The position numbers were made by a program, and so were the translations under genes. Below, piece by piece: positions 27,352-60,530 of a DNA stretch of 64,000 bases. The stretch is from contig OZ024741.1 in the NCBI GenBank assembly GCA_964016885.1, forward strand, positions 378,944,001 to 379,008,000, read 5' to 3'. Positions within the stretch are counted from its first letter, which is position 1; the number at the start of each line of letters is the position of its first letter. Under the pieces are notes generated by a model that was not told the origin of the DNA, made no database searches, and saw only the letters and a list, made by a program, of their open reading frames with translations. Source of the stretch: Eledone cirrhosa (taxonomy: Eukaryota).

Positions 27352-28746
27352 GCGAAAATGAATTGTCTTCAAATCCTTGATATGAGGGAGAAAATTTAAG
27401 GATGTTCACTCATTAGAGTTCTGTCCCCCATATGAAGATTAAGCAGCCAAATCACGCTGACTGCTATCATCCTCAGTTAGGGTCATAAAACTCTTAAGTC
27501 TCTATCTCTAAACACCTGTAAAAGACGCTGGACGTGTCTAATCTCAATATCAAATCTTTAGAATTACAGTCGGTCACAGTTAGTGTGAGTTCACACACAC
27601 TCACACATACTGACGCGAGGTCGAAGAAAGAATATATAATACCAACATATTATTCACTGAAAGTTAGTTTAAACACGGTACCCGGCCGGTTTTTTAGACA
27701 CGGAGTTCCCACAGTTATGACTGGTCACAATCCTAACAATTGAACACTACACTAGGTTTTGATCCATGATCATCTAACCATGTAGTGCTTATGGTTACTA
27801 ATTGGACAATATTAATTATACACCATAAATGGGCCTACACACATCCTCGGAGTTTTGCTATTCTTTTTTATTTTATTTTCTGTTATTTTATTTCTGTGTT
27901 GGGTACACCTATCTTAAAAGCCCAAGGGCCCATATGACGGGAAAACGCACATACCTTAACTCAAATACCCAACCCTAAACAGACCTCCTTGGTGGCCTAT
28001 ATGGCGGTAGCTTGCACGCACAGATTTGGGGACTGAGATTCTCAGTGGGACAATGGCACATACAGAGTTCGGTATGAGCTGACTACTTGCTCTTCACATG
28101 GATGTGTATATACAAAAACATACACTTTTTTAGACGATATGGATGTGTATATACCAAAACATACACTATTTACAATTCAATCGATACACGTATAGCAGAA
28201 CATTAAACTGAATTTACTTGCGTGTGTATAGGGTTGTGGTTGACAAACTTTCTCCAATTTACAACGTCAAATTGAGGTTTGACCAATATAAAATGTGTTG
28301 TTTTGTAAACTAACTTTCGGTGAATACTATGTTGGTATATATATATGTTTTTCTTCGATCTCGCGTCGGTATGTGTGAGTGTGTGTGTACTCACTCACAC
28401 TAACTGTGACCTACTGTAATTCTAAAGATTTGATGTTGAGATTAGACCCGTCCAGCGTTTTTAAAGCTATGAGAGATAGAGACTTGATAGTGTTATGGCC
28501 CTAACTGATGACGATAGCAGTCGGCGTGTTTTGGCTGCTTAATCTTTATATGGGGGACACAACTCTAGTGAGTGAACATCGTTAATGTTTCTCCTTCATA
28601 TCAAGGATTTGAAGACAATTCATTTTCACCTGACGAGATCAGTGATAATCGATCATGGCCGCACGATCAATATATCTCTCATTGAAACATGTGTCGTGAT
28701 TAAAATGATTGTAAATTTATACCATGCGTTCGGATCTTTATTTTGA
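27352..28746 (+). mobile_element. Fold-back PLE relic: inverted arm 27352-27673, decayed ORF end, direct arm 28304-28746 with HHR, then (TA)n
   Basis: ~320-bp inverted repeat; spacer contains TRIAEH and VDKLSPIYN (GIY-YIG-like relics). Confidence 0.75.
28621..28707 (+). ncRNA. Type I hammerhead ribozyme, GUC site (cut after 28695)
   Basis: cattttcac-CTGACGA-(long helix II)-GAAA-catgt-GTC-gtga(tt)aaaatg. Confidence 0.8.
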
Positions 28747-29621
28747 TATATATATATATATATATATATATATATATATATATATATATATATATATATT
28801 TCGTTTGATCTGTTTAGCTTGATTCGTTGTCTAGCCTTCGATGGCCACCGATTTCGGTGACCGCCGATTTCGGTTTATTTGAGCTCTATAAACTATGTTT
28901 ATTGCTCTGGTCTTCTGTAGACCATTGAGCGCTTGCCGCATATCAAACGGTGCGTCACGCTTTTGACCAATGCCGAAATTCTATGTCGCTGAGATTTTAT
29001 TTGTATATATATATATATATATACGCACGTGTATATTATTTTAAATCCTTGTTTCGCGATTACCTCCCCTTTCCGCATCAAGACATTGTGAGACTCCTCA
29101 TTCTGAGACTGCTGGAATTTCAAATTTAGCGGTCATTCTGATACGGAGAGAGACAACCGCTGACATGGAATTAAAACATCGGTAAGAACATTTTTTTATA
29201 TCGATGTTTGACGGGCATCCACTGATGATTTATAAGTGCCCACCTGCATATATTCCTACGGAATCTTGTGAAGGCTTCTACATGACCCGGACACATTCTC
29301 TCAACTTGTAGAAAACTTATAATGAAACAATTCTTTGGAAAAAGAGGTATATTTTAAGTATGTCTCATATAAAATAATACTACTGGTCTTCCGCAAAATA
29401 CATATAGTTAGCACCCCAAACGTAGAATTGGGATTATACTAAGGTATATCCTAATGTTTGTTGAGTGAGATGGAAGCCAGTCAGAGTATAGCTTAAGGCT
29501 TTCTCTGTTAATGTATTGTATATATATATATATAAAGAGAGAGCGAGCGAGCGAGAGAGAGAGAGAGAGAGAGAGAGAGAGAGAGAGAGAGAGAGAGAGA
29601 GAGAGAGAGAGAGAGAGAGAG

Positions 29622-29832
29622 AGAAACCACAGACCCTCCATCTGAATTCTACTTTTAAAAATCAGAAGAACTGCGAAACCGGTAATGGAACCAAATAAAT
29701 ATATATATTTGTTTTAAAAATAAGACTCCAGTTGCATTTTCGATTTCATCTTTTTTTCTTCATACTTTCACTCGTGTAGGACACATCCGTCATTTTTCAT
29801 TTTGTTAAATAATCCTCACTTTCTAATAAATA
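29622..29832 (+). repeat. Family C pLTR-like repeat, solo copy with mutated HHR core
   Basis: Homologous to 30677-30872 (-), 31230-31360, 39620-39828 and 57957-58250. Confidence 0.8.
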
Positions 29833-30501
29833 ATATATATATATATATATATATATATATATATATATATATATATATATATATATATATATATATATAT
29901 GTGTTAGTTCTTTCATTACTTTGGTATTGTGTGTTAGATTTTGCCTACCGCAATGTTTAATTTGTCGAGCTATGTAAACGTATGTTATTACTCTAAGCAC
30001 CTAACTTGTCGAATACTTTGCCAACTCATTCATATAATAGGTCGAATTTGCTAGTACAATGCCAAAGATTCGATTTTACTAAGCTTCCAATTGTATAAAT
30101 ATATATATATATATATATATATATATATATATATATATATATATATATATATATATATATATATATATATACATATATCTATATATATCTAGGCATTGTA
30201 ACTTGGAGCTACTGCAGGTTCACCCGGGTGAGCACTCGATGTTTAGGTCAGTGGCGAGTGGCGAAACGCGCGTCACCTACCAATAAATGTAATGAACGAG
30301 AAATCAATCGTCCTTGTTATCCTTTCAATATATATATATATAAATATATATTTATATATATATATATAAATATATATTTCTTTCTTTCTCTCTTTCTATT
30401 TACAACTGTCCACAATACTTTTTACTGCCAAATCAACCTCCCAAATGCAAGGTGATTGAAAGGTATGTCGTATCTATTTATTTATAAGACTGTTTATATT
30501 G

Positions 30502-57956: not shown

Positions 57957-58250
57957 TTAGAAAGTGAGGTTTTTTTTTTAACAAAATGAAAAATAACCCA
58001 GGTGTCCTACACGAGTGAAAGTATAAAGACAAAGAGATGAAATCGAAAATGCAACTGGAGTCTTATTTTAAAAAAAAATATATATATTTATTTGGTTCCT
58101 TTACCAGTTTCGCAGTTCTTCTGCTTTTCAAAAGGTGAGTTGGGATGGAGGGTCTGTGGTTTTTCTCATATCTGTGAGACCAAATAAATATATATTTTGT
58201 TTTTAAAAATAAGACTCCAGTTGCATTTTCGATCTCATCTCTTTTTCTTT
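57957..58250. repeat. Family C miniature fold-back; U3-A8 HHR at 58098-58135 (-)
   Basis: Minus strand cctt-TTGAAAA-gcag aagaa ctgc-GAAA-ctg-GTA-aagg; 58178-58250 is the inverted partial arm; TA-flanked. Confidence 0.8.
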
Positions 58251-58506
58251 ATATATATATATATATATGAATATATATATATATATATATATATATATAT
58301 ATATATATATATATATATATTTATATATATATATTTATATATATATATATATATATATATATATATATATATATATATATATATATATATATATATATAT
58401 ATATATATACATTTTGAGTATATGTTGGTTGTATACCAACACCTCAGTATGCAGATTGGAGCACACGACGAAGTGCGCAGGTTGGTTTGGTTACTCCGGA
58501 GTAATG

Positions 58507-60530
58507 TAATAAAAAATAAAATAAATTAAATAAGTCAAAAGTTTAAAATTTGGCTTCGTTTATTACTGCTATATATATTTCGGTGACAGCCATCTTTGGT
58601 TGTGACGTCTTCAAGCAGTCGGAATTGGTGTGGTAGAGACGAGTACACATGTTGTTGAAGTGTTTAACTTTGTGAATACTCTGATATGCCCAGTTCCTGA
58701 CTGGGTCGTTGTTTCATTGAGGAACTGGAATCATATGAATTTAAACACAGAAATTTCAGTGAAGGGAATCTTCTCTCATGGTTCAGTTGTGAGAACATTC
58801 CTCAGTCAGAGTTCTATAGAAATTCATCCTGAGACAAGGCCATCTGTAGTGGTTTTTCTTGTTATTGGTAACTACATCTGACCTCTATCTTTATGTTGGT
58901 AGTGGTATCGGTGTTAGAGTCAGCTCAAAAAAATGATAAAGTGGTACAAGGAATAAGGTGGTAGAGGAACCAAATAAAATAATCAAATAAAATGTGTATG
59001 TGTTATAAAGATGTTGGCCAAATTAGAAAGGCTGTGTCAGAATCAATCTCTAGGCTATTATGGTGTCTGCTCAGCCTGGGTGGGTCCCTATGGCTTGAGG
59101 GGAGTTCCCAACCTATGGTGTTGTTACTGCCAATATAGCTTGAGGGAGCTCTGGCCGAGAGGTATCTACATGTTCTGGAGAAGTCCCTATAGCTTGAGGG
59201 GAGTTTACATCTCAGTGTGTTGCTACTGTCCATATAGCTTGAGGAAGGTCCCGGCCCTGAGGTGTCTGCATGTCCCGAAGAAATGAGTTCTGAGGTTTAT
59301 CAGGCGACTTCCACCTCTTAGTATTAGCCAACATCTTTATAACACACACACATTTTATTTTACTTGACTTTTCATTGAATTTTCATTGATTTTTCATTTT
59401 TCTTCTCCTTATTGCCTTATATTTAAGTTGAGAATGGTTATAACACATACACTTTTTATTTAATTATCTTATTTCGTTTTATACTGTTACCATCTTTTTC
59501 CTCCTACCGCTTTATCAAACATCTTTCTGACCTTGAGATTGGTTATAGCACACACATTTTACTTTATTTGAATCTTCACTTCTATTTTCCACTTTCCATT
59601 CTCATATTTCATTTTTCATTTTTTCCTTTCTATTTTCATTTTTCATTTCTCATCTTTCATTTTTCATTAATTAATTTTTGATTTATTTATTATTTATCAT
59701 TTATTTTCTATTTTCTTCATTTTATTGCCTTCTATTTCTTCATATACACCAGCACCACAACCACCACAGGATATGGTGGCAGGATGGGTGAAGAAACACA
59801 CACAGATGCTTATAAATGTCAGCAGCAGCAAGCCATAGGCTGACCAAAACACCAACAACATTACCAAATTAAGGGTAGAGGTCAGATGTACTTAACGATA
59901 CCAAAAACAAATACTACAGGGAACCCCACCTAGGGAAAGAATTTCTATAAGAATTTTGAGTGAGGAATGCGCGCAAAACTGACCAATGGGAGGAGTGAAC
60001 TTACACATTTTTATAACATTGAGATTGGGTATAACACACACACACATTTTATTTGATTATTATATTTGGTTCCTCTACCACCTTATTCCTTCTACCCATT
60101 TATCATTTTCTTAGCTGACTCTAACACCGACACCACTACCAACAAAATAGTAGAGGTCAGATGTACTTAGCAATAACAAGAAAAACCACTACAGATGGCC
60201 TTGTCTCAGAATTAATTCCTATAGAATTCTGACTGAGGAATGTTCTCACAACTGACCAATGACAGGAAATATCCTTTGACACTGAAATTCGTTTGTTTAA
60301 ATTCATATGATTCCAGTTCCTCAATGAGACAACAACCCAACCAGGAACTGGGCATATCAGAGTATTGACAAAGTTAAACACCTCAACAACATGTGTACTC
60401 GTCTCTACCACATTAATTCGGACTGCCTGAAGAGGTCACAACCAAAGATGGCTGTCACCGAAATATATATAGCAGTAGTAAACGAAGCCAAATTTTATAC
60501 ATTTGACTTATTTATTTTATTTTATTTTAT
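58507..60530 (+). mobile_element. Non-coding fold-back element, ~500-bp inverted arms, HHR in each arm
   Basis: 58510-59005 is the reverse complement of 60035-60530; internal GC-richer short repeats at 59085-59280; ends at (TA)n. Confidence 0.85.
60422..60476 (+). ncRNA. Type I hammerhead ribozyme, AUA site (cut after 60471); inverted copy 58565-58619 has TTGAAGA
   Basis: actgc-CTGAAGA-ggtcacaacca aaga tggctgtcacc-GAAA-tatat-ATA-gcagt. Confidence 0.87.

Follow-up and report, generated by a model that had tools for sequence, protein, structure and literature searches.

Head-to-head Penelope-like insertions in (TA)n of Eledone cirrhosa: probable origin from two separately primed DNA copies

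We analyzed a stretch of 64,000 nucleotides from Eledone cirrhosa (GenBank assembly GCA_964016885.1, contig OZ024741.1, positions 378,944,001 to 379,008,000 of the forward strand), called the window below, in which an initial annotation had described inverted repeats with hammerhead ribozymes at their ends, inserted in (TA)n. Head-to-head insertions of Penelope-like elements (PLEs) in (TA)n probably arose from two DNA copies that were primed separately near the front of the RNA and then joined. The evidence lies in the junctions of small hairpins of one family, called 37k, sampled across the genome, and in longer insertions of this and other families (27k, 30k, 35k, 51k, 52k, 54k and 58k).

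Inverted arms, hairpin stubs and their tie to (TA)n

All six inverted repeats of the initial annotation were present, with coordinates that were about right and arm-arm identities of 86–96%. An arm divergence of 4–14% makes an assembly fold-back artefact less likely, judging from the sequence. The outer ends of the arms are fixed and unequal. One arm adjoins TA directly, and the other carries a tail of 75–100 nt before TA; the earlier description of (TA)n ends was thus right about TA contact and overlooked the tail. In the window the junctions at 27671, 38340, 51962, 55026 and 59324 are sharp, and no other sampled locus spans them. Arm length and "spacer" length in the long two-armed elements both differ from locus to locus, the "spacer" being the unpaired part of the longer arm.

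The tie to TA was measured in 40 evenly spaced 10-kb stretches (400 kb) of the six largest contigs of the 3.0-Gb genome. Eighteen palindromes with no loop and arms of at least 40 bp were found, and 17 remained after removal of one simple-repeat row. Twelve of the 17 touched (TA)n of at least four units on exactly one side, against an expectation of 14% (background TA contact 7.5% per side; p about 2 x 10-7), in agreement with the initial annotation. TA runs numbered 15.9 per 10 kb in the window and 20.3 in the sample; the window is not TA-richer, and the association of palindromes with TA is therefore genome-wide. In sum, the inverted arms exist, differ from locus to locus and are associated with (TA)n.

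Hairpins of 37k subfamily A were sampled with an exact 32-mer across the arm-tail boundary, which has 2330 matches; the first 90 were read by position, giving 91 matches. These comprised 66 one-tailed hairpins, 14 long copies, six stubs without an inverted arm, two hairpins with deletions, and three loci scored as two-tailed, one of which (L290) is one-tailed with an internal jump. The automatic parse had put one long copy (L255) and the two deleted hairpins (L266, L328) under "no inversion". The tail-less end adjoined TA in 65 of the 66 hairpins. Their junctions showed a 1–6-nt overlap in 36 cases, were blunt in two, and held filler in 28, several fillers being copied from nearby sequence. 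For subfamily B the first 70 of 857 matches were taken, and about 55 hairpins were counted by eye among the sampled copies. The 66 subfamily A hairpins had 53 distinct centres, so hairpins are made anew at each insertion. Whether centres recur had been raised as a check: they are locus-specific, which makes the hairpin an insertion by-product, as first thought, and not a propagating unit. The 51k hairpin of the window is likewise locus-unique, since none of the other 39 scored loci has it. The idea of a graded series from coding remnant to pure hairpin was not supported, because lengths within one family are bimodal with a sharp wall and the series had mixed unrelated families and independent events.

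Small palindromes that are numerous and short and have TA on both sides might be taken for miniature inverted-repeat transposable elements (MITEs), moved as units by a TA-targeting DDE transposase. A search in which 40 of the 40 best matches were full hairpins also pointed that way. The position-sampled set showed this outcome to be a product of query bias, and the reading of a propagating hairpin was rejected with it. Inheritance of the inner stem was proposed from a left-arm T variant in 17 of 30 biased matches and was also rejected, the variant being missing from the position-sampled copies. With an 80-nt tail on one end the hairpin termini are not inverted repeats, the interior is not uniform but has a centre that differs per locus, and the sequence is the pseudo-long terminal repeat (pLTR) of elements that encode reverse transcriptase (RT). 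Movement as MITEs is thus very improbable, and the view of the palindromes as MITE look-alikes of retroelement origin is supported. The terminal inverted repeats of a DDE transposon with a fixed target-site duplication were not seen, any such duplication being masked by the TA runs, and TA enrichment over background was not lacking. Non-LTR retrozymes are tandem units that each hold a complete hammerhead. The stubs have a head-to-head layout and only the 3' half of the core, and so they are not retrozymes.

A telomere-type repeat, CCCTAACCCTAA, is part of the filler that separates two 51k-family arms at one locus (L376, G000:C1:50855.8k region).

A wall at an initiator-like motif and the front of the RNA

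Hairpin arms of the 37k family tend to stop at a wall; positions are counted here with the A of an initiator-like TCAGT as origin. Of the arms of the 66 subfamily A hairpins, 32 with a tail and 24 without one stop at -4 to +2, and the remainder end further downstream. No subfamily A arm ends between -5 and -33, except that L267, judged by eye, runs further. Stubs without an inverted arm halt at the same wall (L273, L281, L320); together with L435 and L487, five such stubs halt at +1 or -2. Subfamily B has the same wall. A TATA-like sequence, TATTTAAA, begins at -29 relative to TCAGT, the two motifs being compared with the general TATA and initiator (Inr) consensus motifs. At -1 the subfamily B parent has T, and the non-parental base found there was G in eight arms, A in three and C in one (counted by eye with ambiguous junctions removed; p = 0.02, post hoc). 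The G excess in this small post hoc count fits a copied cap. We infer that the wall probably marks the capped start of the RNA.

The placement of the tail relative to this start was read from L236, in which the tail is followed by a 5' leader and then a start codon; the tail accordingly lies at the front of the RNA. In three copies (L290, L324, L455) the wall is followed by sequence of the leader or start codon, which in L236 comes after the tail, an arrangement suggestive of run-off followed by a template jump. The 37k family also has two hairpins of like fold (a 4-bp stem, a 2-nt 3' bulge and a 4-bp stem), each a few bases behind one of the two outer ends. L236 (4710–4821) is a near full-length copy that starts almost exactly at the end of the tail, behind a TA run, and its 5' end coincides with the outer priming site.

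Several observations weigh against a wall set by a capped RNA start. In subfamily B, about five copies overrun the wall and end near -20. The excess of G at -1 is slight; it tells nothing in subfamily A, and L258, L267 and L325 lack it. The second wall, which the 51k family shows at TCACT/TTACT some 70 nt ahead of its hammerhead (by eye, 30 of 1800 matches) and which in itself speaks for the capped start, lacks a clear TATA box. The 54k family has no wall and only one hairpin stub in 30 sampled copies. Finally, a natural 14-nt near-palindrome (-4 to +10) overlies the subfamily A wall and alone could attract joins, and owing to it 12 of the 66 junctions can be read either way.

An alternative has both strands primed from the RNA 3' end, with the wall arising from structure or microhomology as a hot spot in the loop of hammerhead stem II and not from an RNA start, so that no jump is necessary. 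The near-palindrome and the wall-less 54k family would suit such a hot spot, as would the read-through multi-copy transcripts of the scenario outlined in the relevant parts of PMC11167929. A hot spot for joining does not account for the halting of stubs without an inverted arm at +1 or -2, the 51k wall lies outside the hammerhead, and leader sequence follows the wall in the three copies described above. We regard this alternative as quite unlikely.

A further, third wall is possible in the 30k family. Three solo copies in the window (starts at 29625, 39620–39628 and 58161–58170) begin within about 10 nt of one another, about 25 nt before the hammerhead core.

Fold-back of a single copy or joining of two

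The arms of one hairpin are related. The two arms of one-tailed hairpins share outer haplotypes above shuffled pairs in three sets, with 24 of 40 identical (7.4 expected), 13 of 29 (2.7) and 7 of 27 (1.8), all three sets having been drawn by query-biased searches. In 53 long pairs, which include a few duplicate loci, arm-arm identity exceeded that to the median other locus in 44 and that to the best other locus in 17. Shared variants indicate that both arms usually derive from a single RNA or a single source, and this is allowed by fold-back and by separate priming alike.

In fold-back by self-priming, a single target-primed copy would stop, fold on a natural mini-palindrome and copy back to the tail boundary, where an endonuclease would resolve it; later deletions at the centre would blur the junctions. 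Besides the shared variants and the arm identities, the preference of centres for natural mini-palindromes would be expected, and self-priming was proposed for related elements (in the relevant passages of PMC3846280). Against it, at 21 of 66 loci it is the tail-less arm that extends further towards the centre; since no tail can come from a copy that began at the tail-less site, longer tail-less arms favour separate priming. The wall is reached by both arms at similar rates, and fillers occur between two arms that each reach it. In the two-tailed pairs L116, L213 and L259 the arms come from different subfamilies. Arms of two unrelated families are joined at L365 (the same as L437) and L373, and at L365 each arm ends at its own wall; in the window, 35641/35642 is a join of arms from two families. 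Moreover, the Poseidon element PAc extends both strands in vitro, as reported in the main text of PMC11167929. Fold-back is unlikely on this evidence. The initial annotation had offered either cDNA fold-back or paired opposite insertions, and the second gains where the first loses.

Separate priming is therefore favoured by the long tail-less arms, the discordant subfamily pairs and the two-family joins, as far as sequence can tell. Each of these findings, taken singly, could be mimicked by later deletions. A deletion across the palindrome centre could leave the tail-less arm seemingly the longer, and a two-family pair could be imitated by an insertion together with a deletion. To these counterpoints are added the two-tailed L489, whose arms match, and the restriction of the matching second hairpin, as demonstrated, to the 37k family.

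The mechanism that we consider probable runs as follows. The element enzyme would cut both target strands, and two DNA copies would be started independently of each other (twin priming), one at each of two hairpins in the leader, close to the RNA front, usually on one RNA and sometimes on two. Copies that run off the predicted capped RNA start would yield hairpins of about 190 bp when their inner ends are joined. Long arms would come from copies that had switched to a different part of the RNA, as a rule the 3' end, and the "spacer" would be the difference in length between the two copies. Twin priming, the use of one RNA, run-off and the jump are all inferred steps. In L1 twin priming, two primers act on one RNA, and L1 inversions do not duplicate the arms. 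In LTR elements, synthesis of minus-strand strong-stop DNA yields a short initial copy, which ends by run-off at the start of the RNA and has to be transferred; it is primed from a tRNA away from the target. The scheme resembles both, in its two primers on one RNA and in its short run-off copy.

More boldly, and with somewhat less than even confidence, we suggest that PLEs may replicate by a target-anchored, two-handed version of LTR-like strong-stop synthesis. A dimer held by the two leader hairpins would prime both strands, and each copy would run off the cap and have to jump to the RNA 3' end. Failed jumps would leave stubs, one jump would give elements with an inverted arm, and repeated jumps would give partial tandems. 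The two hands could take RNAs of different families, and about 100,000 TA-anchored palindromes would be the fossil record.

Window elements, family identity and known systems

The elements of the window are as follows.

27354–28746, plus strand: 27k element, Hydra-clade PLE; 3' untranslated region 27670–28746, predicted hammerhead core 28630, tail-less end at TA
29625–29832, plus strand: 30k family solo end piece of about 210 nt
30677–31358, unstranded: 30k two-armed insertion; left arm tailed, right arm tail-less at TA
35134–35250, unstranded: 35k family; small one-tailed hairpin with a TA run on either side, absent from the initial annotation
35287–35641, minus strand: arm of another hammerhead-bearing family; predicted core 35543, 3' end at TA, head-to-head with the 35k element
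35642–37372, plus strand: 35k element, a 5'-truncated PLE; RT thumb, GIY-YIG, predicted hammerhead core 37067, tail, then TA
37483–39536, unstranded: 37k two-armed insertion; tailed inverted arm 37483–38337, 6-nt filler, direct copy 38344–39536
39833–40017, plus strand: 37k-family one-tailed hairpin stub with its own centre
40672–40850, minus strand: 37k-family one-tailed hairpin stub with its own centre
40904–41093, plus strand: 40.9k stub, 37k family; 109-bp palindrome and 80-nt one-sided tail, between two TA runs
51081–51686, unstranded: 51k hairpin of 254 bp; 10-nt loop, predicted hammerheads 51178 and 51497, tail 51597–51686, TA at both outer ends
51774–52993, unstranded: 52k element; inverted 189-nt arm and two tandem 433-nt units, the classic pLTR layout; no hammerhead found
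54413–57436, plus strand: 54k element, Hydra-clade PLE; tail-less inverted arm 54413–55026, direct copy from 55026
58410–60527, unstranded: 58k two-armed insertion, Hydra-clade; tailed inverted arm 58410–59324, direct copy 59324–60527

Canonical hammerhead cores (CTGANGA..GAAA) are predicted at 28630, 37067, 51178/51497, 57267 and 60427. The description of the termini as hammerhead-bearing fails at 40902–41015, since the 40.9k palindrome carries only the 3' half of the ribozyme; this stub ends at the predicted RNA start, and the first bulged hairpin lies inside its tail. The 37k hammerhead has a U3-A8 core, in which N7 was the sole varying position across all 13 aligned copies, and the 30k family has a similar core with weak pairing, as judged by eye. 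An Rfam scan returned one sub-threshold hammerhead, and its microRNA matches were all driven by microsatellites.

The 37k direct copy holds the last 45 or so endonuclease codons, a U3-A8 core at 39435–39441 and a tail-less end at TA. The 54k direct copy has a frameshifted thumb and GIY-YIG (to 55957), a predicted core at 57267 and a tail at 57364–57436. In the 58k direct copy the predicted core is at 60427 and the tail-less end is at TA; the 58k inverted arm (58410–59324) has an internal deletion. The interval 58507–60530 had been called non-coding, and the left arm in fact runs to 59324 with the C-terminus of an endonuclease on the minus strand. Conversely, the GIY-YIG tail assigned to 27352–28746 is not there: the 27k element has no coding sequence, and the open reading frame (ORF) of its family stops about 390 nt upstream of the window copy's junction. 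The 27k inverted arm (27354–27671) lacks its outer 120 nt or so, and the left end, which had been placed at TA, is cut short and adjoins a 12-nt tandem repeat. Further 30k solo end pieces lie at 39620–39833 and, reversed, at 57951–58170. A decayed relative of the 51k family (30380–30656, core 30510) stands directly left of the 30k element.

By sequence homology the 27k, 37k, 54k and 58k families are Hydra-clade PLEs, which supports the retroelement origin first put forward. The 54k frame matched 21 longer RT-endonuclease proteins at 33–46% identity, with RWK and DKT in these homologues. In the window it encodes a C-terminal GIY-YIG with the CxCX5C linker, CxxC and CxH, and no CCHH. The same endonuclease motifs were found in copies of the 27k and 58k families (L403, L422) and, by tblastn, in 37k-family copies. 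Elsewhere in the genome, copies of the 27k, 37k and 58k families align to the same protein. To the homologue P0001, which has RWK and DKT, family copies align at about 35–45%; the window copies are without this region, and L236 reads RWR at the RWK position. A predicted hammerhead in the pLTR and insertion in (TA)n, both marks of the clade, were also found. The 35k element is Neptune/Nematis-like by motif only, with a stop-free frame (35615–36796) that holds a CX4CxxC linker and CCHH. For the 30k family only the anatomy suggests a PLE origin. No RT-coding parent of the 30k or 52k family was found in the sampled loci, and none was sought for 51k. Pfam did not recognize the window ORFs and gave GIY-YIG for two homologues only below cutoff; among named homologues, a hypothetical protein of Octopus vulgaris stands closest to one window protein (62%).

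Most sampled 54k-family copies (L331–L360), full-length-looking ones included, have CCGACGA and not CTGACGA in the hammerhead core (U4C); in the window the site is in the 54511–54505 region of the left arm. The 54k family may not need ribozyme activity, as PAc does not in vitro.

Other PLE-like coding remnants lie at 188–1672 (a 495-codon RT-like frame), 61121–61384 (an RT fragment) and 63098–63486 (a Hydra-like endonuclease piece on the minus strand). Broken non-LTR retrotransposons were also found: RT and endonuclease frames, partly duplicated, at 11196–19612 on the minus strand, and at 20193–24369 on the plus strand an element with ORF1, AP-endonuclease and RT, which by its appearance we take to be L1/Tx1-like. 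A repeat of about 190 nt, resembling a short interspersed element (SINE), is present in about a dozen copies in both orientations with no tie to TA (2327–2417, 4952–5146, 7409–7598, 26134–26786, 41338–41530, 44125–44294, 45172–45359, 48395–48587, 50303–50500 and 63685–63804), and it accounts for many long-range inverted pairs that are free of TA.

Much of this architecture is known, as is the clade. Inverted 5'-truncated copies, a one-sided tail and (TA)n targets were described for PLEs (Craig et al. 2021, PMC8557442). The Hydra clade of PLEs with a C-terminal endonuclease, as presented in that paper, shares with the present families RWK/DKT (in homologues), the CxCX5C linker, CxxC and CxH near the C-terminus, hammerheads and (TA)n; its tails of 30–40 nt are shorter than the 75–100 nt of Eledone cirrhosa. 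The passages of that paper that bear on inverted copies give no count of hairpin stubs and no wall, and they call the mechanism undefined. The Poseidon element PAc of Anolis cuts and extends both strands in vitro on AT-rich DNA, two internal start sites bracket a tail near the RNA front, a dimer is predicted, and hammerhead cleavage is not needed (Frangieh et al. 2024, PMC11167929). PAc belongs to another clade, and the main text of that report has no relevant mention of an inverted copy, a cap or a template jump. Penelope elements of Adineta vaga share a head-to-head inverted pLTR, palindromes at the junction, a tail, and TATA and Inr-like motifs in the pLTR; where these are discussed they are of low copy number, and the explanation given is self-priming on an antisense template (Arkhipova et al. 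2013, PMC3846280). Parts of PMC4209133 and bioRxiv 10.64898/2026.07.22.740005 cover the minimal hammerheads of PLEs and animal retrozymes, with type I hammerheads in pLTRs, the U3-A8 variant and hammerhead pairs on opposite strands 100–700 bp apart. The retrozymes described there are tandem with a full ribozyme, in contrast to the non-tandem stubs with half a ribozyme seen here. Literature searches that covered main texts found no strong-stop or twin-priming account of PLE inverted ends; supplements (including those of PMC8557442 and PMC11167929) and most subscription papers were outside their scope and may bear on the matter. The passages covered of an octopus repeat annotation (PMC13282606) make no mention of these structures.

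How the inverted and tandem ends of PLEs are built is an open problem according to the discussion in PMC8557442, and what is added here is a testable account of the inverted ends. Junction statistics are turned into base-level predictions for the RNA start, for two end-setting hairpins and for separate priming of the second arm. The 17 zero-loop palindromes in 400 kb correspond to roughly more than 100,000 in the 3.0-Gb genome, derivation from PLEs being shown for some of them only. Palindromes of the PLE kind would be mistaken for MITEs or for hairpins of microRNAs.

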